In this document: positions 128 to 56,901 of the stretch, piece after piece | Position numbering within the stretch: position 1 is the stretch's first letter | How the letters are laid out: each line of letters begins with the position of its first letter | Source: Chloroflexota bacterium | Lineage (GTDB): Bacteria > Chloroflexota > Limnocylindria > QHBO01 | Assembly (NCBI GenBank): GCA_020848055.1 | Contig: JADLBB010000185.1 | Span: forward strand, 1-56,901 | DNA length: 56,901 nucleotides | Direction of reading: 5' to 3' | The notes under the pieces: model-generated | Seen by the model: only the letters and a program-made list of their open reading frames with translations | What the model was told of the DNA's origin: nothing | Database searches by the model: none | Translations under genes and position numbers: made by a program

Positions 128-129
128 GA

Positions 130-13626: not shown

Positions 13627-13998
13627 ATGACCACGACGCTAATGACAGAGACGCGCGAGATGCAGCTGGACTTCAGGATTCACGACGAGCGGGGCGACAC
13701 GGTTGCCAGCGCCGCAACGCAACTTCGCCTGCCGCGGCTGCTGGTGGACCACTTGCACCCGGAACGCTGGACGGCGGTGCTACGCGCTGCAATCGAAGCC
13801 GGCGCGAGCAACGCCGACTTCAACGACTCCCTTCAGATCAGCCTGGTCTTCACGCTGAGGGTCCCTGGTGGCCACGAGATCGGAGAGGGACACACCCTGA
13901 TCGAGCTGCCCTGGCTGCTCGCGACCTACATCCGGACCGACGCCTGGGGCGAACTTCTCACGAAGGTGATCGAGGACCAGCTGCTCCTGCCAGGGTAG
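13627..13998 (+). CDS. Small hypothetical protein (123 aa), cassette 1
   Basis: AAGGAG lies 8 nt upstream of the ATG. A 14-bp hairpin follows the gene. Confidence 0.65.
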   Translation: MTTTLMTETREMQLDFRIHDERGDTVASAATQLRLPRLLVDHLHPERWTAVLRAAIEAGASNADFNDSLQISLVFTLRVPGGHEIGEGHTLIELPWLLATYIRTDAWGELLTKVIEDQLLLPG

Positions 13999-14013
13999 GA
14001 AGCGACGGCCCAG

Positions 14014-14047
14014 CGGCGGGCGAGGATGAAGTGATCCTCGCCCGCCG
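14014..14047 (+). terminator. Hairpin terminator of cassette 1
   Basis: Perfect 14-bp stem cggcgggcgaggat/atcctcgcccgccg with a 6-nt loop. Confidence 0.55.
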
Positions 14048-14088
14048 ATGGCCGCCAAGCCCTTATCAATCTCTTATCAATTCAGGCC

Positions 14089-14116
14089 TTGCTATCGTCC
14101 CAAAACCGAGCAATAT
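14089..14116 (+). promoter_or_regulatory. Repeated phage promoter, copy C
   Basis: TTGCTA-N16-CAATAT within ccttgctatcgtcccaaaaccgagcaatatggac. Confidence 0.65.
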
Positions 14117-14163
14117 GGACACCAACGAAAGCGCACCGCGCGCGACACGAATGGAGGACGAGA

Positions 14164-14433
14164 ATGCAGACCTTGACCAGCGAGCGATGGCAGGAAGTGT
14201 TCGAGGGGGTGCAGATGGAGATGATCCTGATCGAGGAGAGCCTCGGCCGACTCCGGAAGCTGGTGGACGGAACCGGATACGAGAAGGAAGCCGATGCGAT
14301 CCTCTGGCATCTGGATGCCCTGACCACCACGGACCCGACGCGATTGGAGGCACAACCCGGATTGTGGTCAATCATCGAAGCGATCGGCGGACCGACAGCC
14401 GCATGGATGGCAGAGGCGAACGCGGACGAGTAG
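14164..14433 (+). CDS. Small acidic protein (89 aa), cassette 2; paralog of the cassette 3 protein
   Basis: GGAGG lies 7 nt upstream of the ATG. LTSERWQEV...ESLGRLRKLVDGTGYEKEADA aligns with LPTETWERI...EAIAKIEDALHGTGLARYADA from cassette 3. Confidence 0.65.
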   Translation: MQTLTSERWQEVFEGVQMEMILIEESLGRLRKLVDGTGYEKEADAILWHLDALTTTDPTRLEAQPGLWSIIEAIGGPTAAWMAEANADE

Positions 14434-14447
14434 CAGCCACCGAACCA

Positions 14448-14483
14448 ACCCGCAGGGCGCGACCAATGTGGCGCCCTGCGGGT
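14448..14483 (+). terminator. Hairpin terminator of cassette 2
   Basis: 13-bp stem acccgcagggcgc/gcgccctgcgggt with a 10-nt loop. It is near-identical to the hairpin at 14937. Confidence 0.55.
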
Positions 14484-14564
14484 CGTTCCGGTGGCGAAGA
14501 TCGCGCCCGCCCCCCAGGAAAACGACCGCTCCAAATACGTACCATATGTGGTGACGTACAGGCC

Positions 14565-14592
14565 TTGCTATCGTTCGTAAACCGAGCAATAT
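14565..14592 (+). promoter_or_regulatory. Repeated phage promoter, copy D
   Basis: TTGCTA-N16-CAATAT within ccttgctatcgttcgtaaaccgagcaatatgaac. Confidence 0.65.
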
Positions 14593-14639
14593 GAACGTCA
14601 CGACGCGCACGCGGTGCGCAGCACAAAGGAGCTAGGAAA

Positions 14640-14918
14640 GTGAACCTACCGACGGAGACCTGGGAGCGGATCGCCCTTCTTGAGGAGGCCGCGGACATGG
14701 TTTCGGAGGCCATCGCCAAGATTGAAGATGCGCTGCACGGAACGGGCCTCGCGAGATACGCCGACGCCTACCAGCTCGCCCAGCTCAAGATCCTCGCCTA
14801 CCCGAGTCACGGCTACCTCACACGCGACAAGGGGATCCACCATCTGATCGAGGACCTCAAGCAGGACGAGCGCGAGCAGCGCGAGGAGGAAGTGGACGAG
14901 GAGTACGAACCAGCCTGA
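14640..14918 (+). CDS. Small acidic protein (92 aa), cassette 3; paralog of the cassette 2 protein
   Basis: GTG start with AAGGAG 8 nt upstream. Very acidic C-terminus (DEREQREEEVDEEYEPA). Confidence 0.65.
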   Translation: MNLPTETWERIALLEEAADMVSEAIAKIEDALHGTGLARYADAYQLAQLKILAYPSHGYLTRDKGIHHLIEDLKQDEREQREEEVDEEYEPA

Positions 14919-14936
14919 TCCAGACCTACCGAATCA

Positions 14937-14972
14937 ACCAGCAGGGCGCGACACACGTGGCGCCCTGCTGGT
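14937..14972 (+). terminator. Hairpin terminator of cassette 3
   Basis: 13-bp stem accagcagggcgc/gcgccctgctggt with a 10-nt loop. Confidence 0.55.
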
Positions 14973-15006
14973 CGCTCCGGTGGGCGGCGACCGACGTTGC
15001 GATTGG

Positions 15007-15041: not shown

Positions 15042-15701
15042 CCCGAAGTACGACGGCGGTGCGGCGCGAAGACGCGGGCCGGCAAGCCCTGCAACGCGTG
15101 GGCCGTGTCGGGCCGCGAGCGCTGCCGCATGCACGGCGGCGCGTCGCCGCGTGGCCTGGCCCACCCGTCGACGACGCACGGCGCGTACTCGCGCGCCCTG
15201 CCACAGCGGATCGTCGCCGACTTCGAGGCGGCGCGCACCGACCCGGAGCTCCTCGAACTCCGCAACCAGATCGGCCTGATCGACGCGCGGATCCTCGACG
15301 TCCTGCGGCGTGTGGACACGGGGGAGAGCGGCGCCCGGTGGCGAGAGCTGAACGCGGCGTGGCGCGCGTACCGCGACGCGGTGAAGGCCAAGGACCCGGA
15401 CGCGATGGGGACGGCGCTGGGCAGCGTTGGCCAGGCGATCGACGCGGGCGAGGGCGACTGGCGGGCGTGGCGCGAGGTGGGTTCGCTCGTCGAGCAGCGG
15501 CGTCGGCTGGTCGAGACCGAGCGGCGTCGGCTGGTCGATCTGCGGCAGGTGATTACCAGCGAACAGGTGCTGCTACTCAGCCACGCTTTGCTGAAGGTGG
15601 TGCTTGAGCATGTTCGCGACCAGGGCACCCGCGAGGCCATCGCGGTCGGGTTCCGCGGCATCCTCGACCGCCCTGGAGATGGCGGTCCAAGCGATCGCTG
15701 A
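15033..15701 (+). CDS. terS: Terminase small subunit (zinc-ribbon type), assigned by position
   Basis: It lies immediately upstream of terL and overlaps it. The N-terminal RCGAKTRAGKPCNAWAVSGRERCRMHGG Cys4-type motif is followed by a helical/coiled region. No clear SD, so the start is uncertain (an alternative TTG lies at 14997). Confidence 0.55.
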   Translation: MQSPEVRRRCGAKTRAGKPCNAWAVSGRERCRMHGGASPRGLAHPSTTHGAYSRALPQRIVADFEAARTDPELLELRNQIGLIDARILDVLRRVDTGESGARWRELNAAWRAYRDAVKAKDPDAMGTALGSVGQAIDAGEGDWRAWREVGSLVEQRRRLVETERRRLVDLRQVITSEQVLLLSHALLKVVLEHVRDQGTREAIAVGFRGILDRPGDGGPSDR

Positions 15702-17229
15702 CGGCCTGCTCGGGCGCAGCACGGCGTTCGAACGACCCGCCGTCGTCCCACACGACGGGCCGCAGCACGCGTTCGTCGACAGCGACGCCGACATCGTCGT
15801 GTACGGCGGCGGCGCCGGCGGTGGCAAGACGTGGGGCCTGTTGATGGCGCCGCTGTTCCGCGGCGACGTCGACGTGCCTCGCTTCGGCGCCGTGGTGTTC
15901 CGCCGCACGTACCCGGACATCTTCGCGACCGGAAGCCTCTGGGACGAGGCGCAGATGCACTTCCCGGACCACGGCGCCGTGTTCCGGCAGACACCGCTGC
16001 CGGAGGCGCGCTTCCCGTCCGGCGCGACGATCCGCTTCAGCCACATGGAGCGCGAGGCCGACCGGCTGAACTGGAAGGGCTCGCAGATCCCGTACATCGC
16101 GTTCGACCAGCTGGAGGAGTTCACCGAGGGCCAGTTCTTCTACCTGATGAGCCGCAACCGCTCGACGGCGGGCGTTCGCCCTTACATGCGCGCCACCGTG
16201 AATCCCGACCCCGACAGCTGGGTGAAGCGCCTGCTCGCGCCGTGGGTGGACGAAGAGCACCCTGAGTACCCGTTCCCGCCGGGCGAACTGCGCTGGCTGA
16301 CGCGCGACGAGATCACCGACGACATCGTGTGGGTCGACGCCGCGTGGCGCGATGCCGACGGGCAGCCGGCGCGATCGATCACGTACATCCCGGCGACGAT
16401 CTACGACAACCCGACGCTGCTCACGAACAACCCGGAGTACCTGGCGGCGCTGCGCACGATGCCGCGCGTCGACCGCGCGCGGCTGCTCGACAGCGACTGG
16501 TCCATCCGCGAGGCGGCCGGCTTCATCGACGAGACGTGGTTCGAGATCGTCGACGAGGCGCCGGCCGGCCTCGAGCTCGTCGGCCGGTCCTGGGACATCG
16601 CCGGCACGCAGCAAGGCAAGGGTCGCGGCAAGGGCCGGGATCCGGACTGGACGGCCGGTCCGTTCATCGGCTTCAAGGACGGCGTCTGGTACATCGCCGA
16701 CCTGCACACGACGCGCGGCACGGCCAAGAGCGTCGACGATCTGATGGACCAGGTCGCCGCGCTCGACGGGCCGCTCGTGCCGATCCTCCTGCAGCAGGAC
16801 CCGGGCGAGGCAGGCAAGCGCGCCGTGGCGGCCCACAAGAAGCGCCTCGCCGGCCACGCGGTGCGGTCACGGCCTCCGACCGGCGACAAGGTCCAGCGCG
16901 CCCGCATCCTCGCATCGGCGGCCGAGGCCGGCAACGTGAAGCTGGTGCGCTACTGGCCGGCGCGGCCGGTCGACGACGACGAGCGCCGCGAGTTGCTGGC
17001 CCGCGCGATGGAGTGGATCCGCGCGTTCCTCGCCGAGGTGCGCGGCTTCCCCGACGGCGCGCACGACGACCGGATCGACGCAGTGTCGTGGGGGATGCTG
17101 ATGCTCTCCTTCCCCGACGAGAAGAAGGCCAAGCACAAGCCGATGCCGAAGGGCTTCACGCCCGACCGCTGGTTCAAAGCCGCCGGAAGCGACTGGCTGC
17201 GCGGCGCACCCAAGGGAGGACGATCATGA
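15679..17229 (+). CDS. terL: Terminase large subunit
   Basis: Walker A-like motif VVYGGGAGGGKTWG, a size of about 516 aa, a C-terminal nuclease-like region with acidic motifs (AHDDRIDA), and position upstream of the portal gene. The start is uncertain (alternative at 15604). Confidence 0.8.
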   Translation: MAVQAIADGLLGRSTAFERPAVVPHDGPQHAFVDSDADIVVYGGGAGGGKTWGLLMAPLFRGDVDVPRFGAVVFRRTYPDIFATGSLWDEAQMHFPDHGAVFRQTPLPEARFPSGATIRFSHMEREADRLNWKGSQIPYIAFDQLEEFTEGQFFYLMSRNRSTAGVRPYMRATVNPDPDSWVKRLLAPWVDEEHPEYPFPPGELRWLTRDEITDDIVWVDAAWRDADGQPARSITYIPATIYDNPTLLTNNPEYLAALRTMPRVDRARLLDSDWSIREAAGFIDETWFEIVDEAPAGLELVGRSWDIAGTQQGKGRGKGRDPDWTAGPFIGFKDGVWYIADLHTTRGTAKSVDDLMDQVAALDGPLVPILLQQDPGEAGKRAVAAHKKRLAGHAVRSRPPTGDKVQRARILASAAEAGNVKLVRYWPARPVDDDERRELLARAMEWIRAFLAEVRGFPDGAHDDRIDAVSWGMLMLSFPDEKKAKHKPMPKGFTPDRWFKAAGSDWLRGAPKGGRS

Positions 17230-24130: not shown

Positions 24131-25525
24131 ATGCCGACGGCCATCAAGAACGTCCCGACCGTGTCCGAGCTGGTCGACCAGATCGAGCGGGAGGACGGCG
24201 TCGCCATCCCGATCGAGGTCGCCCAGCGCATCTGGGACAGCGCCAGCACCCGCCGCGAGTTCGCCGGCTCGACCGGCACCTCCGAGCGGACCGACGCGCT
24301 GATCAACCGCATCGACGTCGACTTCGTCACCGAGGCGATCGAGCGCCAGGAGAGCCTGTCCGAGGCGCTGGAGCGCGAGGACCCCACCGAGACCGAGCGC
24401 GACATGTCGCTGGGCGTGGACGCATTCCAGCGCGTCATGCGCGGCCTGAACATCCGCACGGCCTCCAGCCGCAACGCCGGCGTGCGCGCCCACACGATGG
24501 GCGATCTCGACGTCGCGGGCCCGCGCATCGCCGGCGACGTGAACGTCGGACGCTGCATGGTGCCCGAACTCCTGCGCCGCGCCTACATCGAGGGGCAGCG
24601 TTTCGGCACGCAGCGGTTCAGCATCGACCGCTTCTACGCCAGCTCAGCGCCGCTGTCCGAGGTGCTTGAGCCGAAGTTCATGCTCCAGCTGATGACGACC
24701 TTCAAGTTCCGCCAGCCGATCCTCAACCTCCTGGTCGCGATCGAGACGGGCGTCGAGGCCGGCGTCTTCAAGTACGTCTTCATCGACGAGCAGGCGGACG
24801 CGGAGCGGATGGCGCGCGTGCCGCTCGGCGCCGATCTGCCGACGTCCAAGCTCACCGTCTCGGACCGCGAGGGCCGGGTCTACCAGTACGGTCGCGCCAT
24901 CGAGGCGCAGGACGCGGCGCTGCGGCGCATGACGATCGACATGGTCCGCTTCCAGACGGCGCGCCTCGGCCAGCGGAACGCGCTGGACAAGGAAGAGGTC
25001 GCCGTCGACACGGCTATCAACGGCGACTCGAACGCCGGCACCGCGGCCACCGAGACCGACATCACGACGGTCGGCGGCATCGTCGACCGCGTGACGAGCA
25101 CGCCGCTGTTCAACTTCCTCGGCCTGTTCGAGGAGAGCGGCGCCTACACGCCGACGATCTGCCTCGCGCGGCGCACGACCAAGACCAAGATCCGCAGCGC
25201 GGTGCTGGACGACGGAGCCGCCTCACCGGCTCCGACCGAGGCGGCGCCCGTCTTCATGGGCGACATGCGCCTGTGGCCGAACGGCGGCGAGGGCCCCGAG
25301 GAGCGCGACCACCCGCCGATCTACGCCCGCTCCTACACGCCGGCCGACAAGGGCGTCTACATCGACGCCAGCCAGGCGATTGGTCTGGCGTTCGAGGTGG
25401 GCGCCAACAAGACCGAAACCGACCGCTACATCAAGCGGCTGGTCAACGTGGTGGCCATCAGCGAGGTCGTCGGCTTCTGGGTCGTCGACTCGCGCGCCAC
25501 GCGGATCTTCGACATCACCAACTGA
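24131..25525 (+). CDS. Major capsid protein (assigned by position)
   Basis: AAGGAG upstream. 464 aa, following the protease/scaffold and decoration genes. No motif check was possible by eye. Confidence 0.6.
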   Translation: MPTAIKNVPTVSELVDQIEREDGVAIPIEVAQRIWDSASTRREFAGSTGTSERTDALINRIDVDFVTEAIERQESLSEALEREDPTETERDMSLGVDAFQRVMRGLNIRTASSRNAGVRAHTMGDLDVAGPRIAGDVNVGRCMVPELLRRAYIEGQRFGTQRFSIDRFYASSAPLSEVLEPKFMLQLMTTFKFRQPILNLLVAIETGVEAGVFKYVFIDEQADAERMARVPLGADLPTSKLTVSDREGRVYQYGRAIEAQDAALRRMTIDMVRFQTARLGQRNALDKEEVAVDTAINGDSNAGTAATETDITTVGGIVDRVTSTPLFNFLGLFEESGAYTPTICLARRTTKTKIRSAVLDDGAASPAPTEAAPVFMGDMRLWPNGGEGPEERDHPPIYARSYTPADKGVYIDASQAIGLAFEVGANKTETDRYIKRLVNVVAISEVVGFWVVDSRATRIFDITN

Positions 25526-45783: not shown

Positions 45784-46314
45784 ATGCACCTCTCCATCCG
45801 CCCGCGCCGCTTCTGGCGCCCGCTCCTGGCTCTGGCCTTCGTGGTCGGGGTCGCCTTCGTCCTCCGTTCCACGGCCCACGCCGCGGCGCTGCTGCAGGCG
45901 GTCGAACCCGACCCCGGCCTCGTGGAGGTGACCGACCTCGTGAGTTCGCTCATGAAGGTCGTCGCCGTCGCCCTCTCGATCGTCGGGATCACCGGCGGCA
46001 TCAAGGGGCTCGTCGGGGGGATCCCGGATCTGAACGTCGGGAAGAACCCGGACGGCTCGCCGCGGTTCGTCCTGAAGGGTGGGCTGATCCTGTCGTGGGT
46101 CGTCGGGTTCCCGGTGACGCTCGTCGCCCTCTCGCAGGGCTGGGGACCGGACCTGTCCTCGTACCCGTCGGGTGAGGCGGCGATCGCGGGTCTCTGGGCG
46201 TTCTACTCGTCCGTTTCGAACATCGTCCGCAACGCGATCGTCGGTGCCGGCGGCGGCGGGACGGACACCGTGATCCGCGAGCTCGCACGGCGCGGGCTGC
46301 TGTCGCGGGCGTAG
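45784..46314 (+). CDS. Polytopic membrane protein (holin candidate)
   Basis: GAGGAGG upstream. Three to four TM helices. It is the last gene of the lysis block and a hairpin follows it. Confidence 0.5.
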   Translation: MHLSIRPRRFWRPLLALAFVVGVAFVLRSTAHAAALLQAVEPDPGLVEVTDLVSSLMKVVAVALSIVGITGGIKGLVGGIPDLNVGKNPDGSPRFVLKGGLILSWVVGFPVTLVALSQGWGPDLSSYPSGEAAIAGLWAFYSSVSNIVRNAIVGAGGGGTDTVIRELARRGLLSRA

Positions 46315-46357
46315 GAGGGTCTGCGGGAGAAGGTCTGTAAGGCAAAGAGTGCGATCC

Positions 46358-46395
46358 GCGAGCCCTCACCCCCAACATCGGAGGTGGGGGCTCGC
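46358..46395 (+). terminator. Hairpin terminator ending the late/lysis operon
   Basis: 13-bp stem gcgagccctcacc/ggtgggggctcgc (one G:U pair) with a 12-nt loop. Confidence 0.5.
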
Positions 46396-46493
46396 TCTAT
46401 CACGGGGCCTCAAACAAGGGGCCTTGACCAGGCCGCCTGCATGGCCGTAATCTTCGCGCCTCGCCTGACCAGTTGCCTCCCGGAGCAAAATTA

Positions 46494-48452
46494 GTGAACG
46501 ACCCCATCGCGACCTCCTGGGCACACAAGCCCTCTCTCGGGCAGCTGACATTGCCAACCTATTCTGAACGATTCCTTGAGTCCTATGCCGGCAAGATTGT
46601 CACGTCACCGCTCGTGGCCCTGGTGGAATTGGTTGCCAATTCCTGGGATGCGGGCGCCGTTCTTGTTGACCTGACCTGGCCAGATGAAGGTCAGTCGACA
46701 TTTCGACTTTCCGACAATGGTGTCGGTATGAAACATGATGATGTGTGGGGCCGATGGCTCAATCTAAGCTACAACCGACAGAAGGCACAAGGCGAGAATG
46801 TCGTCTTTCCTCCAACAACGGAGCGCACGCATCGGAAAGCATTTGGGCGGAACGGCAAGGGAAGACTCGCGCTATTCGCGTACTGTGACCAATACGTTTT
46901 GACGACTTGGCGTGATGGTCTATTCAATTCGTATCGGGTTGCCCTCACCTCTGGCGGAACGGTGCCCTATAGCGTCGATCACATTGAGACTGGTGACAGA
47001 GACGGATCTGGCACAATGTTCGAAGGGACTCTTGTGAGAAACCATCTGTCACCTACGATGATGGCCCGCGAACTTGCGATGAGATTCATCATCGATCCAA
47101 AGTTTATGATTCAGGTAAACGGACGCAAGATTGACGCTGGCGACCAAGGCATTCCTACTACCGCGCATCCTTTTACGTCTGGTCCTTTCGACTTCGAGAT
47201 AAAGCTCTACGCCGGCTCCAAAAGCGGCCGCCTAAGTGGGTATCACGGGGTAGCATGGTGGGTGAACAGTCGACTGGTCGGCACGCCGTCTTGGAATCGC
47301 CTTGCAAAGGGTCGTCCATACTTGGACGCGCGCACGACATTCGCGAAGCGGCACACAATTATTGTGGAGGCAGACGGACTTGCCAATCATGTTCTCGACG
47401 ACTGGTCTGGATTTGACGAAGACGAAGTTACAACGAAGGCAATCGACGACGTAGAGGGATACGTTGCCGCGATCTGCCAATCGCTGGTAGCCGACCTTCA
47501 TCGCGAACAGAAGACGGATGTCCTTCGCGCCAATGCGGTCGAAATGCGCGCTCTCCCTCCAGGTTCGCGCCACGCAGTAGGCGAGCTGATTTCTGAAATG
47601 CAACGAAGGGTTCCCACGATCGACGAGGATGTCCTAAGTGCAACGGTGGCCGCTGCCTCCAACATCCTGAACGCGAGGTCCGGTCACGCACTACTCCGGC
47701 AACTGGCCGATCTGTCGCTTGATGATCTAGATGGACTGCATCGCCTTCTGGCGAACTGGACGGTTCAGGAAATCCGCATCATTGTTGACGAACTGCAGCG
47801 GCGACTGGATCTCGTCAAGAAGCTAGAAGAGGTGACCTCTCGATCCAGCGACGAACTCCACGAGGTCCAACCACTATTTGACACAGGATTGTGGATCTTT
47901 GGCCCTGAGTACGATGGCATTTCATTCATGTCCAATCGCGCCCTGGCCACTGTGATCAAGAAGTACTTCGCAAAGCAGATAGATGTAAGCCTCATTGAGG
48001 ATCCGGCATCGAGGCCAGACATTGTGGTCACGAGCGACATGTCACTTCGCGTGTTTGCGCGGGATCATTACGACGACACGTTTAATGTTAGCGGGTTTGA
48101 AACAGTGCTTCTACTTGAATTGAAGCGTGGAGGACATACAGTGAATGACAACAACGTGTTCCAGGCGATGAAGTACGCGGCCGAATTGCGTCGAACGAAT
48201 GCTGTACAAGCAGACACGAAAATCGTTTGCATGATATTGGGCAGCAAGATTGCTTGGGGCGTGGGTGAAATGCGGAAGCCGGAGCAGAACATCAGATGTC
48301 TTCCGCGCGACTTTCAGACGGTCCTTCGTCAGGCGCACGCACGGACGTTCAATATTCTTCGACAAATTGAGGACGCCAATGGAGGCGCTATTTACGACAG
48401 CGAAGTCGAGGCCGCGATCATGCAGGCTCCAATTCCCTTCGAAGAGATATAG
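46494..48452 (+). CDS. GHKL (Bergerat-fold, MORC/HATPase_c_3-like) ATPase fused to a C-terminal PD-(D/E)xK nuclease of Shedu/DUF4263 type
   Basis: N box ELVANSWDAGA, G1 box SDNGVGM, G2-like GRNGKGRLA, and GSGTMFEG. The C-terminus carries LFDTGLWIFGPEY, RPDIVV (Asp), LLLELKRG (Glu-x-Lys) and QAMKY (QxxxY). GC is much lower than the phage backbone. GGAG lies 8 nt upstream of the GTG at 46494 (an alternative TTG lies at 46473). Confidence 0.7.
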   Translation: MNDPIATSWAHKPSLGQLTLPTYSERFLESYAGKIVTSPLVALVELVANSWDAGAVLVDLTWPDEGQSTFRLSDNGVGMKHDDVWGRWLNLSYNRQKAQGENVVFPPTTERTHRKAFGRNGKGRLALFAYCDQYVLTTWRDGLFNSYRVALTSGGTVPYSVDHIETGDRDGSGTMFEGTLVRNHLSPTMMARELAMRFIIDPKFMIQVNGRKIDAGDQGIPTTAHPFTSGPFDFEIKLYAGSKSGRLSGYHGVAWWVNSRLVGTPSWNRLAKGRPYLDARTTFAKRHTIIVEADGLANHVLDDWSGFDEDEVTTKAIDDVEGYVAAICQSLVADLHREQKTDVLRANAVEMRALPPGSRHAVGELISEMQRRVPTIDEDVLSATVAAASNILNARSGHALLRQLADLSLDDLDGLHRLLANWTVQEIRIIVDELQRRLDLVKKLEEVTSRSSDELHEVQPLFDTGLWIFGPEYDGISFMSNRALATVIKKYFAKQIDVSLIEDPASRPDIVVTSDMSLRVFARDHYDDTFNVSGFETVLLLELKRGGHTVNDNNVFQAMKYAAELRRTNAVQADTKIVCMILGSKIAWGVGEMRKPEQNIRCLPRDFQTVLRQAHARTFNILRQIEDANGGAIYDSEVEAAIMQAPIPFEEI

Positions 48453-48505
48453 CAGGCTGCAACGTGTAGTCCCCAAGATTCGTCCGTCTGCCGGTTGCTT
48501 GCCAC

Positions 48506-48521
48506 CCGAACGCCCGTTCTA
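48506..48521. promoter_or_regulatory. LexA (Cheo-type) box upstream of the 84-aa gene
   Basis: ccGAAC-GCCC-GTTCta. The 14-mer GAACGCCCGTTCTA is identical to the one at 55694-55707. It lies between TTGCCA (48499) and TACTAT (48520). Confidence 0.55.
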
Positions 48522-48535
48522 CTATCCTCTCCCGC

Positions 48536-48790
48536 ATGCGCTCGTACGACCCGCCCCTCCCCATCCGCGCCCGCGTCGCAGTCGACGGCGCGCCCCACTC
48601 GTTCGTCCTGGACGGCGTGACCTACGTCGTCGAGACGATCGAGGAGGTCCGCGCGCCGTGCCTCGACTGGTGGACGGCGACGCCGGCGCACCGGACGTAC
48701 TACCTCGTCACGACGAACCGCGGGATGGTCGCCGAGCTCGTGCGGGACGAGGTGGCGGGGACGTGGGGGGTGGCGCGACGGTTGGATTGA
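48536..48790 (+). CDS. Small protein (84 aa), DUF6504-like by recollection
   Basis: ORF with high GC, unlike its neighbours. PHSFVLDGVTYVVETIEE....WW.......YYLVTTNRGMVAELVRDEVAGTWGVARRLD. No SD, and the -10-like TACTAT lies 10 nt upstream of the ATG, so the mRNA may be leaderless. Confidence 0.5.
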   Translation: MRSYDPPLPIRARVAVDGAPHSFVLDGVTYVVETIEEVRAPCLDWWTATPAHRTYYLVTTNRGMVAELVRDEVAGTWGVARRLD

Positions 48791-49080
48791 CCGCGTGGGC
48801 GAACCGTCACGGCGACTGTTGCGCCGTTGTGTACTCGATGGACCGCAGCCAGATCGTCAGGTGCCAATTGCACAGCCATTGGCTGGTACTGTCAGGCTGA
48901 GGCACTCAGTCGTCAGAAGTACTCGGCTCTGTGCCCGGTCCGACACGGCCGACACTTCCCACTGTCGGAGCATGCACTCGCGTTCTTCCGACCACTCGCA
49001 CCTGTCCGACCAGCTCGGGGGCGTACGAGATCTCACCCGCAACGTGCGTCGCCGATGACCGCAAGCGATAGGGGCCGTCG

Positions 49081-50268
49081 CTAAGGCTCACCGCTAGGTC
49101 CGTCTGTGGCCCCGTGGTCAGCTCCATCTGCACCTCGGCCTCCTCCCGCGATCAGCTGATCTGTCGATCGCCAACAGGCGCTCTTCTGGACACTCGTGAC
49201 GCGCAGCTCGGATGAGGGGAGTCGCTGCGCGTTGATCACTCCGCGCATCTCGAACCGACTCGCCCAACGGGCGCTCTCCATCAAGGCGAGCACGAGAGTG
49301 TAGTCAACCGGCGGCACCATGACAACTTCCAGTTTCTGAAGCACGTTCTGCAGAACCTGCTGTTGGACCTCAGGCGGCAATCCGGCCGGGATGTTCACCT
49401 GAGGAGCCGGGCCGAACAGCGCTGCTGCCGCTCCGGATGACGCCAGTTCTGAGGTCGGGTTGAACGGTTCGCGCGTATTTAGCTCGGCTTCGATGTCCTG
49501 CCACACTGCGGAAATCAGCCCCTCAAGGTCAGGCTCCGGCCTAATCACCTTCAACCCCATCTGTTCGGCCTCGGTTCGGCTCAAAGGGTACCCGTGTGCC
49601 TGGAATGTCTTGTTGAGCGCCTCCGCTATGTTGCGAGCCTGCTGAGCTTCAGCGTCGGACGCCATGTGCATACGGAGTAGCTTCTCTCCCATGCTGAGAG
49701 ATAGCTGCGTGCTGCGCGCCGCAACACCGATAGGGACGGCACCAACCTCTGAGCAGAGGAGCTCGAACACTCGTACAAGCTGGCCCTGATCAGTCAGGCC
49801 AACTGTGTTACGCGCAAAGTCGAGGAACGCGGCAGCATCTTCTGAACCGAACGCAGTCTGGGTGGCTGGCCCCTCGTCGCCTGACCGGCGTACAGAGGTT
49901 ATCTGGGGATCGATCGGCCCCAGGTTCCCGTAACGGTGCATGACAATCTCGTCTGCCCCGAGCGCGATGAGCGTGGCTGCACTGAAAGCCGCTTGAGGAA
50001 CCAGAACCGCGAAATGGTCCACCCTCTCGCGAATGTGGGACACCATGCGCCATGCCACAAGCGGATCGCCGCCGTTGCTCGCCAGTAGCAGGTCGAGGCA
50101 TGTTGCATCGGCCGGCAGTGCATCCAGCTGGCGGAGGAGCTCGCCGATCGCATCTGAGCTGATCTTGGCAGTTGCACCGGGCCGCGTGCCTGTGACGTAC
50201 GCGACCAATGGCCTTCCACGTATCTGCTCAATGTTGGAGTACAAGGCCATACGGCGTTCGATTCCCAT
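49081..50268 (-). CDS. SDH-family ClpP/crotonase-fold serine protease (S49/SppA-like)
   Basis: LDLLLASNGGDPLVAWRMVSHIRERVDHFAVLVPQAAFSAATLIALGADEIVMHRYGNLGPIDPQ matches the serine dehydrogenase proteinase family pattern. GGAGGG lies 10 nt upstream of the ATG at 50268 (the ORF extends to 50322). Confidence 0.7.
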   Translation of the reverse strand: MGIERRMALYSNIEQIRGRPLVAYVTGTRPGATAKISSDAIGELLRQLDALPADATCLDLLLASNGGDPLVAWRMVSHIRERVDHFAVLVPQAAFSAATLIALGADEIVMHRYGNLGPIDPQITSVRRSGDEGPATQTAFGSEDAAAFLDFARNTVGLTDQGQLVRVFELLCSEVGAVPIGVAARSTQLSLSMGEKLLRMHMASDAEAQQARNIAEALNKTFQAHGYPLSRTEAEQMGLKVIRPEPDLEGLISAVWQDIEAELNTREPFNPTSELASSGAAAALFGPAPQVNIPAGLPPEVQQQVLQNVLQKLEVVMVPPVDYTLVLALMESARWASRFEMRGVINAQRLPSSELRVTSVQKSACWRSTDQLIAGGGRGADGADHGATDGPSGEP

Positions 50269-50487
50269 GGTGTTGTTACCCTCCGCGAGGTTCTGCGGTG
50301 CATCGACAAGTGCGAATAGCATGATGCGCCACCATGCGATTCAAATCCAACGGCAGCGGAACCTGGCAGCGCAGCGACTGGAGGGTCCTGAGAAACGCTC
50401 CCGTAGTACGCTCTCCGATCCCAGCCGCCTTGCCCCCAGCCTCCGCCCCAGGTATAACCCCGCGCCACCCTGGAGGCCCGCCCCCAC

Positions 50488-53304
50488 ATGACCCCCCAAC
50501 AATTCGTCGCCACCTGGAAGAACGTCACCCAGACCGAGCGCGCCACGTCGCAGACGCACTTCAACCATCTCTGCCAGCTGCTCGGCGTCGACGACCCGGT
50601 CACCGGTGACCCGACCGGCCAGACGTACGCATTCGAGCCGGGCGTCCGCAAGTCGAGCGGTGGCCAGGGATGGGCGGACGTCTGGAAGCGTGGGCACTTC
50701 GGGTGGGAGTACAAGGGGCCAGGGCGCGACCTCGAGGCGGCGTACCGCCAGCTGCTCAACTACAAGGACGCCCTCGAGAACCCGCCGCTGCTGATCGTCA
50801 GCGACATCCAGACGATCATCGTCCGCTCCAACTTCACGAACAGCGTCCAGCGCACTCGCGTGTTCACCGTCGAGGGGATGCTGGACCCGGCCGAACGCGA
50901 CGCGCTGCGTGCCATCTGGACAAACCCCGAGGCGTTCAGGAGCCGACGGACCACCGAGGCCGTCACACGGGAGGCGGCGACGCAGTTCGCCAAACTCGCC
51001 GACCATCTGCGCGCCAAGGATGTGGCGCCGGACGCGGCCGCCCACTACCTGATCCGGCTGCTGTTCTGCCTCTTCGCCGAAGACATCGGGCTGCTGCCGA
51101 AGAGCCTGTTCACGACGCTGGTGCACAGCGGTCATCGCCAGCCGGAGCGCTTCAACAACCAGCTCCGCACACTCTTCGCGGCGATGAGCACCGGTGGCTA
51201 CTTCGGCGCCGATGACATCCTCCACATCAACGGCCGGCTGTTCGACAGTGCTGCCGTGATCGACCTGGACAGCGACGCCCTGTGGATCCTGAAGGGGGTC
51301 TGCGACCTGGACTGGTCGGCGATCGAACCCGCGATCCTCGGCACGCTGTTCACGCGCTCGCTTGACCCGGCGATGCGCGCCCAGCTCGGCGCGCAGTACA
51401 CGAGCCGTGACGACATCCTGCTCGTCGTCGAGCCGGTGCTCATGGCGCCGCTGCGTCGTCGATGGGCGGAGGTGAAGGCGCAGGCCGAGGCGATCGCGGC
51501 CGAGCGCGACACTGCGCCGGCGGGGAGCGCGCGGACGAAGAAGGATAACCAGCTGCGCGCCGTCCTCGTCGCCTTCGCGCAGGAGCTCGCCCGCATCCGC
51601 GTCCTCGACCCCGCCTGCGGCAGCGGCAACTTCCTCTACGTCGCCCTCCTGTTGCTGCTCGACCTCTGGAAGGAGGTCTCGACCGCCGCTGCGGACTTCG
51701 GGCTGTCACTGCTCATGCCGACCGATGACCAAGCTCCGTCGCCAGCGCAGCTGCACGGCATCGAGATCAACGAGTACGCCCACGAGCTGGCGCAGGTGAC
51801 GATCTGGATCGGCTACATCCAGTGGATGCGCGACAACGGGTTCGGGCGGCCGGGCGAGCCGGTGCTCAAGCCGATCGACACGATCGAGCATCGGGACGCA
51901 ATCCTGGCGTTCGACGCGGAGGGGAGGCCGGTTGAGCCGGAGTGGCCGGCGGTGGATGTGGTCGTCGGGAATCCGCCCTTCCTGGGCACGAAGCTGATGC
52001 GTGCAGGTCTCGGTGATGCCATTGTCGATCGCCTCTTCGAACTGTACGACGGCAAGGTGGCGCGGGAGTCCGACCTCGTCGTCTATTGGTTCCACCGTGC
52101 TCAGCAACTCGTGGCCAGCGGCCGACTCAAGCGCGTGGGTCTGCTTGCCACGAACTCCATCCGAGGAGGCGCGAATCGTCGCGTCATCGAGGACATCAAG
52201 CGAAGTGGCGACATCTTCATGGCATGGAGTGACCGCCCTTGGATTCTGGACGGCGCCGCCGTAAGGGTGTCAATGGTCGGGTTCGACGACGGCTCGGAGC
52301 ACGACCGCAACCTCGACGGCATGTCCGTCTCCGAGATCCACTCCGACTTGACGAGCGGCGGCGCAGATCTGACTCAGGCAGTACGGCTGGTCGAGAACGT
52401 CGGGCTCGCGTTCATGGGCGACACGAAGGGCGGCGCGTTCGACGTCAATGATGTGACTGCGACGGCGATGCTGGCCGCCAAGGGCAACCCAAATGGTCGA
52501 CCAAACAGCGACGTCGTGCGGCCCTGGGTGAACGGCATGGACCTGACGCGTCGACCGCGGGGGATGTGGATCATCGACTTCGGCATCGATTCCACGCAGG
52601 ACTCTGCATCGGGCTACGAGCGGCCGTTCGAACACGTCGTGTCACACGTGAAGAAAGACCGTGACCGCAATCGTCGCGACGCCTATCGCCTGCGCTGGTG
52701 GCTTCACATGGAGCCTCGTCCAGCGATGCGCCAGGCTCTGGCATTACTACCGCGCTTCATCTGCACGCCTCGGGTGTCAAGCCATCGGGTGTTTGTCTGG
52801 CTGTCCCCACCGACACTCCCAGACAGCGCCACAATAGCCATCGCGCGCGACGATGACTACTTCCTTGGCGTCCTCCACTCCCGCGCCCACGAGCTGTGGT
52901 CGCTCCGCATGGGCACGTGGCTGGGCGTCGGCAATGATCCGCGCTACACGCCGACGACCACGTTCGAGTCGTTCCCCTTCCCCTGGCCCCCCGGCCACGA
53001 GCCGGCCGACGACCACCGCGTCCTCACAATCGCCACCGCCGCCCGCGAGCTCGTCGAGCAGCGCGACCGCTGGCTCAACCCCGATGAAGCCACCGAGGCT
53101 GAGCTGAAGAAGCGGACGCTCACCAACCTGTACAACCAGCGGCCGACGTGGCTTGACCTCGCACACCGGAGGCTAAATGAGGCGGTGCTGGACGCGTTCG
53201 GGTGGCCTCGGGACTTAGGGGACGAGGAGCTGCTGGAGCAACTCTTGGCGCTGAATCTTGATCGGGCGAGTCGATCTGCAGCGACGGACAGGGTCACCAA
53301 GTGA
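50488..53304 (+). CDS. MmeI-family type IIL (IIG) restriction-modification enzyme: N-terminal D-X9-E-X-K nuclease, gamma-class N6A methyltransferase and TRD
   Basis: GWADVWKRGHFGWEYKG gives D64-X9-E74-X-K76. Motif I is VLDPACGSGNFL and motif IV is VVGNPPF. The 938-aa size and domain order match the MmeI family. GGAGG upstream. Confidence 0.75.
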   Translation: MTPQQFVATWKNVTQTERATSQTHFNHLCQLLGVDDPVTGDPTGQTYAFEPGVRKSSGGQGWADVWKRGHFGWEYKGPGRDLEAAYRQLLNYKDALENPPLLIVSDIQTIIVRSNFTNSVQRTRVFTVEGMLDPAERDALRAIWTNPEAFRSRRTTEAVTREAATQFAKLADHLRAKDVAPDAAAHYLIRLLFCLFAEDIGLLPKSLFTTLVHSGHRQPERFNNQLRTLFAAMSTGGYFGADDILHINGRLFDSAAVIDLDSDALWILKGVCDLDWSAIEPAILGTLFTRSLDPAMRAQLGAQYTSRDDILLVVEPVLMAPLRRRWAEVKAQAEAIAAERDTAPAGSARTKKDNQLRAVLVAFAQELARIRVLDPACGSGNFLYVALLLLLDLWKEVSTAAADFGLSLLMPTDDQAPSPAQLHGIEINEYAHELAQVTIWIGYIQWMRDNGFGRPGEPVLKPIDTIEHRDAILAFDAEGRPVEPEWPAVDVVVGNPPFLGTKLMRAGLGDAIVDRLFELYDGKVARESDLVVYWFHRAQQLVASGRLKRVGLLATNSIRGGANRRVIEDIKRSGDIFMAWSDRPWILDGAAVRVSMVGFDDGSEHDRNLDGMSVSEIHSDLTSGGADLTQAVRLVENVGLAFMGDTKGGAFDVNDVTATAMLAAKGNPNGRPNSDVVRPWVNGMDLTRRPRGMWIIDFGIDSTQDSASGYERPFEHVVSHVKKDRDRNRRDAYRLRWWLHMEPRPAMRQALALLPRFICTPRVSSHRVFVWLSPPTLPDSATIAIARDDDYFLGVLHSRAHELWSLRMGTWLGVGNDPRYTPTTTFESFPFPWPPGHEPADDHRVLTIATAARELVEQRDRWLNPDEATEAELKKRTLTNLYNQRPTWLDLAHRRLNEAVLDAFGWPRDLGDEELLEQLLALNLDRASRSAATDRVTK

Positions 53305-54194: not shown

Positions 54195-54570
54195 CAACTG
54201 GCCAGCGGCGCGTCGACGCGCACGTCTTGTCCCCGCGTTATCCCCATCTCATCCACACCCAGCCCACCCCCGTGCAACCCAACCCCCCGTCCTGCGTATA
54301 GCCCCCACCAAGCGCGACAAGGCGACCGCGGGATTGCGCCCCACGGCCGCCCATAGCGGGTTGAGGTAACCCGCCGTAACAGAGTATACGCGCCGTGCAT
54401 TGGAGGTGATGCACCGTGGAAGACCCCCCACCAGAACCCAGCGCCGCCCGCGCGCGCCACCAGCCGCCACGCGCCCTCAGGCGCTCCTGGCCGCGGCGTA
54501 GCACCGGCACGCAAGGCGGTCGCCGGCGGCGCTGAGTCCGACCCCCAACGACAACTTAACGCCTGGGCCC

Positions 54571-54613
54571 TTGCCACCCCTGGCCGTGTCCGTACAATAG
54601 AACACCCGTTCTA
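54571..54613 (+). promoter_or_regulatory. Strong promoter overlapped by a perfect palindromic LexA-type box
   Basis: TTGCCA-N16-TACAAT. TAGAAC-ACCC-GTTCTA (54598-54613) starts at the last base of the -10 element. Confidence 0.65.
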
Positions 54614-54640
54614 ATTGTGCTTGCGCGAAGGGATTCGGCA

Positions 54641-54916
54641 ATGGCTCTCGGCACCGGCTCTGGAACTGTCCCCCACGGCGACGCTCCGGTGCGGCTCTTC
54701 ATCACCTGCGATGTCGGCCGCCAGCGCTTCAGCTTCCGGTCGTTCATCGGACCCTTCGGCGTCGACGAGGAGTCGACGTTGATCGAGCAGAGCGGCGTGG
54801 ACGACATCCACACTGAGGCGGTCCTCGCTGCAGCGTCGGAGTTCGCTCACGACCTCCGGACTACGATCGAGGCCATCCTTCGGCGCGATGCAGTGGAGGC
54901 GAACCAGGACCGGTGA
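54641..54916 (+). CDS. Small protein (91 aa) under the boxed promoter; antirepressor candidate
   Basis: AAGGGA upstream of the ATG at 54641 (the ORF opens at GTG 54617). No recognisable domain. Confidence 0.5.
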   Translation: MALGTGSGTVPHGDAPVRLFITCDVGRQRFSFRSFIGPFGVDEESTLIEQSGVDDIHTEAVLAAASEFAHDLRTTIEAILRRDAVEANQDR

Positions 54917-54962
54917 CAGCTCACGGGATGGCGGATTGCCGCCTTCCCCTGTCCACAGTGCG

Positions 54963-55006
54963 TGATATACTGGCGCAGGTGTTCTATAGAACGCTTGCAC
55001 TAGTTC
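54963..55006 (+). promoter_or_regulatory. Extended -10 promoter with GTTCTA/TAGAAC half-sites in a non-canonical arrangement
   Basis: TGaTATACT (54963-54971). GTTCTATAGAAC (54981-54992) is followed by GAAC-N10-GTTC. Confidence 0.4.
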
Positions 55007-55033
55007 CGCGCTGTGTCACCGTGGGAGCCCTGG

Positions 55034-55657
55034 ATGAACAAGCGAATCCCGCCGGCACCGGCCGGCATGGCGCGCGACGAGTGGATCGCTCTCGAAACCG
55101 CGTCGCTCCTTGAGGCCTTCGGCGACGCCGACTTCGACGAGGCCCTCTGCCGCCGACTTGCCGCCCTCGAGCTCGACATCGACGTCGACACCGACGACGG
55201 CGGCCTATCGCCCGAAGAGCGCTTCAACGCCGAGATCCTCATGCACGAGGGCCTCGACAACGCCTGGGCCCGCCAGGTCGCACAGGCGCTCACGCGAGTT
55301 GACCTCGGCAAGCTGCTCATCGGCAGCCGCATCGCCGCCCAGGCGCTCGGCACGAACCGCAACACCATCCGCACGAACATGGTCGAGGACCGCCTCCCGG
55401 CCCGCATCGTCCACGTGGCTGAGGGTCGCCAGGAGGTCATCGCCTTCTCGACCGGCCGCGTCCTCTTCACGCGCGAGTGGCAGCGGCGCTACCCCCGCAC
55501 CGGCGGTCCCGTGAGCGGCTTCCCGCCGCGCGCGCCGTACAACGCGTCCCGCCGCCGGGTCGTGCGGACGGGCGTCCTCGACCGCGGCACCCTGGCTGAG
55601 ATGGACCGCGCCGGGGCGGCGCCAGCCAGTCCACGAGAGGACGGCACCGGCGCTTGA
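55034..55657 (+). CDS. Excisionase/RDF-like HTH protein (HTH_17/MerR-like)
   Basis: GGGAG lies 6 nt upstream of the ATG. LIGSRIAAQALGTNRNTIRTNMVEDRLPARIVHVAEGRQ fits the Xis-type HTH pattern. It lies directly upstream of int. Confidence 0.5.
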   Translation: MNKRIPPAPAGMARDEWIALETASLLEAFGDADFDEALCRRLAALELDIDVDTDDGGLSPEERFNAEILMHEGLDNAWARQVAQALTRVDLGKLLIGSRIAAQALGTNRNTIRTNMVEDRLPARIVHVAEGRQEVIAFSTGRVLFTREWQRRYPRTGGPVSGFPPRAPYNASRRRVVRTGVLDRGTLAEMDRAGAAPASPREDGTGA

Positions 55658-55707
55658 CGTGACCCGCGTAACGACTAGAATGGACGTTCTAGAGAACGCC
55701 CGTTCTA
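55654..55707 (+). promoter_or_regulatory. int promoter with two tandem LexA-type boxes
   Basis: TTGACG-N16-TAGAAT. Box 1 is TAGAAT-GGAC-GTTCTA (55676-55691, which includes the -10). Box 2 is GAGAAC-GCCC-GTTCTA (55692-55707). GGAGG and the ATG follow. Confidence 0.65.
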
Positions 55708-55720
55708 ATTTGGAGGTTGT

Positions 55721-56773
55721 ATGAACGCGCCGTCGCCTGACTCCACCGTCGCCGCCTACCTCGACTGGTGGGCCTCCACGCACGTCGCGCGCCTGCGCAC
55801 GAACACCCGCGAGAACTACCTGAAGGGCGTCGAACTCTACCGGCCGGAGCTGGGCAGCGTCCTCATGCGTGACCTCGGGCCGCAGCACCTGCAGCGGATT
55901 GTCGACGCCCAGGTCGAGGAAGCGCACTACTGCCCGAACACGATCCGGTTGTTCTTCGGCGTGATCCGCTCCGCCCTGCGCCGCGCGGCCGTCGAACACC
56001 GCCTGCTGGAGTACAACCCCGCACCGATGGTCCGGCTGCCATCACGCAACCCGGTCCGGTCCAAGGCCTTCGGCCGCGACGACGCCGTGGCGTTCATCAA
56101 CGAGGCCCTCGCTCCCGACGGCACGGGCGGGCGCCACTACCACGGCGTCATGCTGACGACGGCCATCAAGACCGGCATGCGCTTCGGCGAGCTGCGCGGC
56201 CTGCGGATCGACAACCTCGAGCTGCGCGACGCGCCGACCGGCAGCCTTGGAGGGATCGTCCGGATCTGTGAGCAGATCGCGTCCAACGTCTCGCGGGCCG
56301 AGTGGAGCGAGCCCAAGACCGTGGCCAGCCACCGCGAGATCCCGGTCTCGCCCGACCTCGCCGGCATCCTGCGGCGCCACCTCGAGCGGCTGGCCATCCA
56401 GCGGCGACGGGTCGGGACTCGGAAGTGGCAGGACAACCAGCTGGTGTTCCCGGCGCTCCGCGGCGGCCTGGTCATGAGCAAGGACCTGGCTTGGGCCAGA
56501 CGCACGATCGCCCTCTCGGCCGGCCTCTCACGGATCCCCACGATGCACTGTCTGCGTCATACCTATGCCACCCAATTGGCTAATGGACGCATCCGCCCTG
56601 AGGCTTTGCAGGAGGTCGTCGGGCACGCCGACATTCGGACCACGATGAACGTCTACTACGACGCGACCGAGGAGACGCTCGAAGAGGTCGCGGCCGCCGT
56701 GGCGGATTGGTCGCGTGAGGGGCTTGACAACAGACCACGCGCCGGATACAATGGACTTCGCCCGAACGGATGA
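55721..56773 (+). CDS. int: Tyrosine integrase
   Basis: N-terminal SAM-like core-binding domain. Catalytic residues are present in order: R (TGMRFGELRGL), K, HCLRH (H-x-x-R), GHADIRTT (H) and NVYYD (Y). Confidence 0.9.
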   Translation: MNAPSPDSTVAAYLDWWASTHVARLRTNTRENYLKGVELYRPELGSVLMRDLGPQHLQRIVDAQVEEAHYCPNTIRLFFGVIRSALRRAAVEHRLLEYNPAPMVRLPSRNPVRSKAFGRDDAVAFINEALAPDGTGGRHYHGVMLTTAIKTGMRFGELRGLRIDNLELRDAPTGSLGGIVRICEQIASNVSRAEWSEPKTVASHREIPVSPDLAGILRRHLERLAIQRRRVGTRKWQDNQLVFPALRGGLVMSKDLAWARRTIALSAGLSRIPTMHCLRHTYATQLANGRIRPEALQEVVGHADIRTTMNVYYDATEETLEEVAAAVADWSREGLDNRPRAGYNGLRPNG

Positions 56774-56774
56774 T

Positions 56775-56901
56775 CTACACGGGCGTTCGGTCGGAGATAA
56801 CAATTACATATCAGGATCAGTACGCATTTGGGTCCTTGAAACTTAGCAGGAACGTGCGTGCAATGATCTTGAAATCGAGGAGCAACGACCAATTTTCAAT
56901 A
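56775..56901. repeat. Terminal identity, copy 2 (identical to 1-127)
   Basis: Same 127-mer as 1-127. It lies immediately downstream of the int stop codon (56773). Confidence 0.95.

Follow-up and report, generated by a model that had tools for sequence, protein, structure and literature searches.

What governs the excision of a temperate phage whose integrase gene, together with the two genes preceding it, carries LexA-box-like palindromes on its promoters? The question is raised by contig JADLBB010000185.1 (assembly GCA_020848055.1), analyzed here over its full length of 56,901 nt (henceforth the window) and placed by NCBI in a metagenome-assembled genome (MAG) of a "Chloroflexi bacterium" (locus tags IT341_*). 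The window is a circular tailed temperate phage of ~56.8 kb: positions 1-127 are identical to 56775-56901, and because this 127-bp terminal overlap closes a circle of ~56,774 bp, the tyrosine integrase gene (int, 55721-56773, plus strand; PF00589, E = 6e-18), the attachment site attP and a gene for a truncated LexA paralogue, which we call LexPhi (258-665, plus strand), are neighbors. A preliminary description of the sequence, which missed both the circularity and the LexPhi gene, proposed that palindromes of the form TAGAAC-N4-GTTCTA put a small gene, a xis-like gene and int under direct SOS control. As judged from the analyses described below, these palindromes are very likely LexA-type operators of the GAAC-N4-GTTC class, and they may have not one but two candidate binders, the host LexA and LexPhi.

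The scan of the range 54300-56901 for sigma-70-like sites reported exactly three promoter matches (0.2 expected), and a box follows each of them (scores in bits given below refer to a position weight matrix (PWM) of the LexA box trained exclusively on sites from outside the window). The first promoter, P_small (TTGCCA-N16-TACAAT, 54571-54598, plus strand), runs into the perfect box TAGAACACCCGTTCTA (54598-54613), which starts on the last base of the -10 hexamer, in agreement with the earlier statement that a perfect palindrome abuts this promoter. It precedes the small gene (54641-54916, plus strand, 91 aa), which is also called in the near-identical contigs L011 and L012. The second, P_int (TTGACG-N16-TAGAAT, 55654-55681, plus strand), is overlaid by tandem boxes spanning 55676-55707. 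The left arm of the first of them, TAGAATGGACGTTCTA (55676), is the -10 hexamer itself, and its core carries one mismatch (GAAT), while the second, GAGAACGCCCGTTCTA (55692), follows directly and has an exact core; the tandem arrangement on the -10 of the int promoter was thus described correctly, save for the imperfect core of its first member. The third promoter, P_out (TTGACA-N17-TACAAT, 56724-56752, plus strand; 11 of 12 consensus positions), did not figure among the promoters listed previously. It lies within the 3' end of int and is directed across attP, with the degenerate box CCGAACGGATGATCTA (56762-56777; core at 56764 with one mismatch; 11.4 bits) 9 nt past its -10.

Upstream of the xis-like gene (55034-55657, plus strand, 207 aa; product P0023) we found an extended -10-like element TGATATACT, followed by the abutting degenerate boxes TGGCGCAGGTGTTCTA and TAGAACGCTTGCACTA (together 54963-55002, plus strand). 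An element had been noted at this place as a set of rearranged half-sites; it is better described as two abutting 16-mers (54971-54986 and 54987-55002; 10.0 and 11.9 bits), each half-degenerate, with a perfect common GTTCTA/TAGAAC junction. The label "xis" is itself provisional, as it derives from the gene position and from a weak HTH_17/MerR match in one homologue (L018). Outside the module, a further promoter (TTGCCA-N18-TATCCT, 48499-48528, plus strand) contains the box CCGAACGCCCGTTCTA (48506-48521; exact core; 15.1 bits; left flank CC instead of TA) between its -35 and -10 and precedes a DUF6504-like gene (48536-48790, plus strand, 84 aa; weak PF20114 match). Every one of these boxes is located within or just 3' of a -10 hexamer, or between a -35 and a -10. 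The searches of PHROG revealed no match for the small, xis-like or DUF6504-like genes, and the product of the small gene has no match in Pfam either.

An exhaustive scan of the window for the core GAAC-N4-GTTC and its one-mismatch variants confirmed the excess of such sites. The exact core occurs three times (48508, 54600 and 55694), while dinucleotide shuffles average 0.58 sites, which agrees with the preliminary estimate of less than one site by chance in 56.8 kb, and three or more sites were reached in 1 of 100 shuffles. The previous count of at least four boxes (including 48506) comprises three exact cores plus the imperfect one at 55676. For the extended pattern TAGAAC-N4-GTTCTA with up to two mismatches, five sites were found (48506, 54598, 54987, 55676 and 55692) against 0.16 expected, a number reached in none of 100 shuffles. 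The PWM reported 8 sites with scores of at least 12 bits (1.2 in Markov nulls), and its top five include 54598 (21.9 bits, the best in the window), 55692, 48506 and 55676. One-mismatch core sites number 31 as listed, against 17.6 +/- 4.6 expected (29 of them are distinct, since two are in the 127-bp terminal overlap, and 26 are left if the three exact sites are subtracted), and the majority of them are away from the promoter regions described above.

With respect to their placement, each of the three exact sites precedes a start codon by 27-41 nt (rough chance ~1e-4), and across 20 fetched loci each exact box is in a promoter region, namely that of lexA, the DUF6504-like gene, the small gene, int or P_out. 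The claim that all boxes are in promoters holds for the exact sites. One strong PWM match, TCGAACACTCGTACAA (49763-49778; 16.2 bits), is inside a protease open reading frame (ORF) on the opposite strand and is probably a chance occurrence in an island of lower G+C content. Another candidate operator, GAACGTGCGTGC at position 76/56850, is not kept in the related contigs L001 and L002 and was treated as chance.

If the boxes are operators, they would be expected to persist in relatives and to occur at the promoters of cellular lexA genes. The contigs compared were obtained from Logan, ENA and NCBI by exact-protein look-ups; tblastx comparisons of these loci with the window produced mostly high-GC noise and were disregarded. 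One relative is L010, a Logan contig of 5.9 kb whose genes are arranged as in the window (a small gene, followed by the xis-like gene, int and a gene for a LexA DNA-binding domain), in which the products are 40% (xis-like), 35% (int) and 45% (LexA-like) identical to those of the window, and the small gene in the same position is not homologous. L010 contains exactly three promoter-like sites (0.1 expected), in places homologous to those of the window, and an exact box follows each of them (909, 1919 and 3073). The box at 909 comes straight after a TATACT -10, in the same place as 54598 of the window; the int promoter (TTGACG-N17-TAGAAT) has its exact box right after the -10; and the counterpart of P_out (TTGACG-N17-TAGACT), again in the 3' end of int and with the -35 within conserved G-L-D codons, is followed 9 nt past its -10 by the exact box GTGAACAACCGTTCCA, the same offset as for CCGAACGGATGATCTA. 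The position of the xis-like promoter in L010 is occupied by GTACATCTGTAC. In L018, a third lineage, whose xis-like protein also precedes int (34% identity), one-mismatch boxes are found at the xis-like promoter (2786 and 2847) and over the -35 that serves int (3418), an exact box is found at its DUF6504 gene, and of its five sites that deviate from the motif by no more than one base, four lie between genes. Locus L013 has a more distant LexA-like gene that encodes the DNA-binding domain alone and is situated where the prophage begins on the left; no exact box was found over 16 kb, but this locus does not extend to the int end and is therefore uninformative. Further relatives of the module were found neither in IMG/VR with the xis-like protein, nor in JGI metagenomes or GTDB genomes with the xis-like alignment, nor in any of these three collections with the back-translated PRTGGPVSGFPP pattern, and the LexPhi alignment and tail pattern retrieved none from IMG/VR.

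As to cellular genes, the lexA products of loci L007, L008 and L009 possess the cellular DNA-binding domains closest to LexPhi. All three genes carry a box between the -35 and -10 of their promoters (TTGACATCGAACACTTGTTCGCTTATAAT, TTGACTTAGAACGTGCGTTCGTGTTATAAT and TTGACTTGGAACAATTGTTCTGGTAGACT, respectively), and upstream of lexA is the only place in each locus where the exact GAAC-N4-GTTC occurs. This pattern is the LexA motif of the Gram-positive type (PMC3323433).

Independent evidence comes from the DUF6504-like gene. Its promoter, box and coding sequence form a cassette of ~300 bp (48498-48802), which recurs with ~83-86% nucleotide identity in L014-L017, while the homologues of the gene product on other contigs are 67-88% identical and only the segment 48498-48802 is common to these contigs and the window. 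The contexts are otherwise non-homologous, and one of the contigs belongs to an Ardenticatenales MAG. Five lineages proved identical in CTTGC (in the -35), CGAAC, GTTC and ATCCT (in the -10), and differed in the flanks and in the 4-nt spacer; thus, in L014, L015, L018 and L019 the arms of the box are unchanged around a variable spacer. Among the genes called in the fetched flanks of the cassette contigs, none belongs to the LexA_DNA_bind family. The cassette hints at the clade of the host and at a mobile gene that may be SOS-regulated. The literature yielded nothing on DUF6504. The cassette occupies positions 7127-7421 in L014, 7962-8267 in L015, ~1100-1415 in L018 and ~5950-6261 in L019, often beside HEPN_AbiU2 or toxin genes, in what look like moron regions of prophages.

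Altogether, because the motif is found at cellular lexA promoters, because its positions are kept in relatives with 34-45% protein identity, and because its arms are constant around a free spacer, we consider it probable that the boxes are functional operators of the LexA family and that the host LexA is among their binders. The proposal of direct SOS control is thereby supported as far as LexA-type operators are concerned; its other part, host LexA as the binder or the sole binder, is not established, given the presence of LexPhi.

LexPhi (135 aa), the first gene product past int and attP, consists of a LexA DNA-binding domain (PF01726, E = 7.5e-14) and no other recognizable domain. When compared with full-length LexAs of cells, it exhibits 56-61% identity to their DNA-binding domains, and in its recognition helix, STSVVNY, the residues S60, T61, S62, V64, N65 and Y66 are identical to those of the cellular proteins. 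These residues align with the recognition helix of E. coli LexA, and the matches in the Protein Data Bank are the LexA structures 3k2z and 1lea. The S24 autoprotease and dimerization domain is absent: the chain ends ~45 residues past the wing, and no S24-like sequence is found anywhere in the window. The AlphaFold2 model presents a winged helix-turn-helix with block-mean pLDDT (predicted local distance difference test) values of ~85-94, to which the ~45-residue tail adds two low-confidence helices. The tail nevertheless has a recognizable pattern (..AVRxAxAAGExLPxRVVAALEAVA), which is common to the counterparts in L010 and L018 and to at least nine further clusters at 50% identity, with family members ranging from 99 to 137 aa (e.g. 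P0044, P0047, P0049, P0066, P0076, P0077, P0113, P0151 and P0156; L018 4718-5077). PHROG matches of LexPhi are to families with no known function, and among INPHARED phages the proteins with a LexA DNA-binding domain are all distant (<47% identity); as far as we found, the LexPhi family has not been described before. Within the tail, the residues aligned with the AGEP cleavage site of LexA are A125-G126 (AGEILP; L010 and L018 both have AAGEPLP). We considered the idea that the tail mimics this site and set it aside as speculation, as the motif is loose across the family (variants AAGAHLP and AEGEALP) and the model predicts low-confidence helices and not a strand. Because its recognition-helix residues are identical to those of cellular LexAs and the cleavage domain is missing, LexPhi is a second, presumably SOS-insensitive candidate binder for the boxes. 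Provided that host LexA does act on them, the chance that LexPhi shares these sites appears to us about even.

The position of LexPhi relative to int depends on whether the phage is integrated. The attP region (56817-56901 = 43-127) contains, on the minus strand, the 3' end (~28 codons) of a sugar-transferase gene from a bacterium; the predicted peptide, ...IENWSLLLDFKIIARTFLLSFKDPNAY*, matches positions 158-178 of 179 in PF02397 (E = 0.011). In three contigs that contain relatives of LexPhi with 86-88% nucleotide identity (L001, L002 and L005), the homology breaks exactly at the stop codon of the sugar transferase, and the flanks past the break differ from contig to contig (an SBP lipoprotein gene or a PAP2-like gene). 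We read these contigs as putative attL junctions of integrated prophages. The segment equivalent to attP is at 2823-2907 in L001 and at 626-710 in L002. The break in homology places attP between int and LexPhi, and integration therefore puts the two genes at opposite ends of the prophage.

Between attP and LexPhi there is a strong hairpin followed by a T-run (127-160, plus strand), resembling an intrinsic terminator, which is kept in L001 and L002; similar hairpins with T-rich tracts precede the ribosome-binding site of LexPhi in L010 and L018. The distance from P_out to the hairpin and T-run is ~190 nt. In a lysogen, P_out would read antisense into the reconstituted sugar-transferase gene of the host. 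The leader of LexPhi (160-257, ~100 nt) is nearly invariant among the relatives with 86-88% identity and contains a conserved GTACC-N4-GGTAC palindrome; its predicted fold is no better than that of shuffled sequences (z = -0.81).

On the basis of these observations the following mechanism can be envisaged. A LexA-type dimer bound to a box would block RNA polymerase at the -10/+1 region of P_small, the xis-like promoter, P_int, P_out and the DUF6504 promoter, i.e. it would act as a repressor. Host LexA, which is expected to recognize GAAC-N4-GTTC, would hold these promoters off in the undamaged lysogen, and its RecA-stimulated cleavage would switch on all three genes of the module (small, xis-like and int) at once, so that excision would be wired directly to the SOS response. 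LexPhi, which would not be subject to autocleavage, most likely acts on the same boxes and could provide SOS-independent repression, for instance shut-off after excision or infection; its location 3' of the boxed P_out has an autoregulatory look. We further speculate that, since P_out and LexPhi would be joined in the circle only, LexPhi might re-silence the module there or damp the SOS regulon of the host. Taken to its conclusion, this would amount to an integration-state-gated switch with two LexA proteins in a family of Chloroflexota temperate phages: in the prophage, cleavable host LexA alone would be bound at the four boxed promoters (P_small, P_xis, P_int and P_out), and DNA damage would lead to excision; after circularization, P_out would be rejoined to LexPhi, which would take over the boxes, and perhaps the SOS boxes of the host, for a shut-off independent of RecA. 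The tail of LexPhi might in addition dock on host LexA. We put this complete scheme forward tentatively, as we think it rather unlikely to be right in all its parts.

Several points weigh against the interpretation offered here. The expectation that host LexA would recognize GAAC-N4-GTTC is derived from relatives and from published knowledge of Gram-positive LexA, and the comparison of modules involves a small number of independent lineages, three. Tight repression of int by LexA would be awkward for the establishment of lysogeny in undamaged cells. LexPhi made in a lysogen and acting on the same sites would block SOS induction, so the model needs a low level of LexPhi in the prophage. No sigma-70 site was detected between the terminator and the LexPhi gene that could serve as its own promoter, and the terminator-like hairpin could stop transcripts from P_out short of LexPhi. 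Across the LexPhi family the recognition helix is variable, as in private phage repressors; finally, the LexPhi-like protein of L018 has a diverged recognition helix and GAAC-like boxes persist in this locus nonetheless, which fits host LexA better than LexPhi as their reader.

Two other assignments of the binders must be weighed with these points in mind. It is conceivable, though we would not bet on it, that host LexA acts on the boxes alone, which is a special case of our core claim, and that LexPhi works elsewhere, either as an activator or as a modulator of LexA or RecA via its tail. There is a precedent in gp6 of the Bacillus thuringiensis phage GIL01, a truncated LexA homologue that recognizes a different palindrome and acts as an activator (PMC6182141). 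That the tail is the best-conserved part of the family, above the recognition helix, and that L018 keeps its boxes would be explained readily in this way, and the GTACC-N4-GGTAC palindrome conserved in the LexPhi leader is a further point in its favor. On the other hand, STS(V/T)VNY is kept by LexPhi of both the window and L010 despite 45% overall identity, which argues for selection to read a LexA box, and we found no other repeated palindrome tied to LexPhi. Somewhat less probable still, and in our opinion improbable, is the converse arrangement, in which the boxes are private immunity operators with LexPhi as the sole binder, a non-cleavable repressor of the lysogeny module, so that host LexA would have no role and no SOS induction would proceed through them. 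The LexPhi gene is indeed syntenic with boxed promoters in all three lineages, it lies 3' of a box-controlled promoter in a manner suggestive of autoregulation, and its recognition helix would read the boxes; the variation of this helix across the family resembles that of phage immunity repressors, and L018, in which the helix has diverged, has imperfect int and xis boxes throughout. However, a host LexA of the GAAC-N4-GTTC type could hardly ignore a perfect TAGAAC-N4-GTTCTA, the box of the DUF6504 cassette is kept on contigs where no gene of the LexA_DNA_bind family was called in the fetched flanks, and LexPhi lacks the dimerization domain of LexA. Moreover, exact-pattern and PWM scans of the window detected no boxes at other early or lytic promoters of the phage, which argues against LexPhi as a general repressor of lysogeny. 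Sites unrelated to LexA (arm sites of the integrase, recombination-directionality sites, targets of a different regulator, e.g. the xis-like helix-turn-helix protein, or chance occurrences) are very improbable, for although several boxes cluster near int and attP and parts of them overlap -10-like sequences (TAGAAT, TCTAAT) that could inflate their apparent conservation, the identical motif occurs at cellular lexA promoters and in the DUF6504 cassette (both in the window, at a distance of ~6 kb from the module, and in contigs unrelated to it), constant arms with a free spacer are the pattern of dimeric operators, and chance is excluded by the shuffles.

The preferred reading, in which host LexA is at least one of the readers of the boxes, may be compared with several known systems. 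The closest of them is GIL01, a tectivirus in which host LexA acts on tandem boxes together with the co-factor gp7 and which encodes gp6 as mentioned above (PMC6182141, PMC4551915). GIL01 and the phage described here have in common boxes of the host LexA type on phage promoters, including tandem canonical and non-canonical ones (here identified from the sequence alone), and a LexA homologue cut down to the DNA-binding domain (here LexPhi); furthermore, Pfam scans of ~40 ORFs and a window-wide search for S24-like sequence revealed no S24 or CI-type protein in the window, so that a cleavable repressor of the classical CI kind was not detected there. They differ in that GIL01 is a non-integrating linear plasmid-prophage with boxes on replication and late promoters, whereas our phage is tailed, with a circular contig, a tyrosine integrase and contigs that look like integrated junctions, and has its boxes on the int/xis-like module. 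A counterpart of gp7 was not identified, no search aimed at it having been made, and several small ORFs of the phage have no annotation. Likewise, gp6 (~66 aa) uses another palindrome and activates, whereas LexPhi (135 aa) possesses the LexA recognition helix and a conserved tail.

In coliphage 186 a small antirepressor gene, tum, is under the control of LexA. The antirepressor genes of the Salmonella Gifsy prophages are controlled in the same way (PMC3121763). The gene at 54641-54916 resembles these genes in being small, directly under a LexA box and outside the structural and replication regions, and in both cases the SOS input would not require self-cleavage of the repressor, and the phage regulator has no cleavage domain. 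By this analogy, the gene that follows the perfect box could encode a counterpart of an antirepressor. Unlike in Gifsy and 186, its 91-aa product has no Pfam or PHROG family and is replaced by a non-homologous one in L010, there are boxes on int and on the xis-like gene as well, and the motif is of the Gram-positive/Chloroflexi type and not CTGT-N8-ACAG.

LexA boxes over promoters of tyrosine recombinases or early phage genes are also found in the integron integrase gene intI and in CTXphi rstA. The common theme is the coupling of DNA rearrangement to DNA damage; those elements, however, are proteobacterial and use another LexA motif, and we know of none among them that encodes its own LexA paralogue. 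Topology-dependent expression across attachment sites is familiar from the sib retroregulation of int in lambda and from the joint-spanning transcription of Tn916. Similarly, P_out and the predicted terminator flank attP, and integration would separate them while excision would rejoin them, as far as can be deduced from the nucleotide sequence; in contrast to lambda and Tn916, neither an RNase III site nor a transfer operon is involved here.

The remainder of the genome is in keeping with a tailed phage, which recurs in the sequencing runs SRR11294019 and SRR11294033. Its G+C content is ~0.69 and almost all genes are on the plus strand. It encodes a large terminase of the T4 type (15604-17229), an HK97-like capsid protein (24131-25525), a tape-measure-sized ORF (1995 aa), replication proteins (AAA_24 and a protein with HTH_36 and DnaA_N domains) and DNA methylases. 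The boxed DUF6504-like gene is inside an accessory island (46000-53300) with a lower G+C content (0.58-0.61), along with a HATPase_c_3 protein (46473-48452), an SDH/ClpP-like protease (49081-50322, minus strand) and an MmeI-like type IIL restriction-modification enzyme (50488-53304). Beyond LexPhi, at the left end of the prophage, the segment 674-1018 (345 bp, comprising an ORF of 93 aa and most of a tRNA-Met gene, 958-1030) is absent from L002-L006 and kept in L001; it is followed by two minus-strand genes without Pfam matches (1200-1799 and 1852-3174), which are candidate lysogenic-conversion genes. Another region of potential regulatory interest (13526-15000) contains three tandem cassettes, in each of which a small ORF is accompanied by a repeated promoter-like unit of ~60 nt and by a GC-rich hairpin that is likewise repeated (copies at 14439-14494 and 14928-14983). 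The unit has the structure TTATCAATC...CTTGCTATCGT-N9-CCGAGCAATATG, with a TTGCT...AGCAA inverted repeat, and the lytic switch may have in these cassettes an operator/promoter set of its own. The host is probably an Ardenticatenales-like bacterium of the Chloroflexota.

To our knowledge, almost nothing is known about the control of lysogeny in phages of Chloroflexota. If the interpretation presented here is true, this would be a tailed temperate phage in which int, the xis-like gene and a small gene are SOS-boxed, i.e. one whose control goes beyond a cleavable CI alone, and the same phage would carry a protease-less copy of LexA with LexA-like specificity. It would define LexPhi as a protein family with a conserved tail, comprising nine or more clusters at 50% identity, and the ~300-bp cassette of an SOS box and a DUF6504 gene would be a candidate by which the LexA regulon of this clade might be marked. 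The idea known from GIL01, host LexA as the repressor of a prophage that also encodes a LexA paralogue, would then extend to integrating tailed phages and to another phylum.

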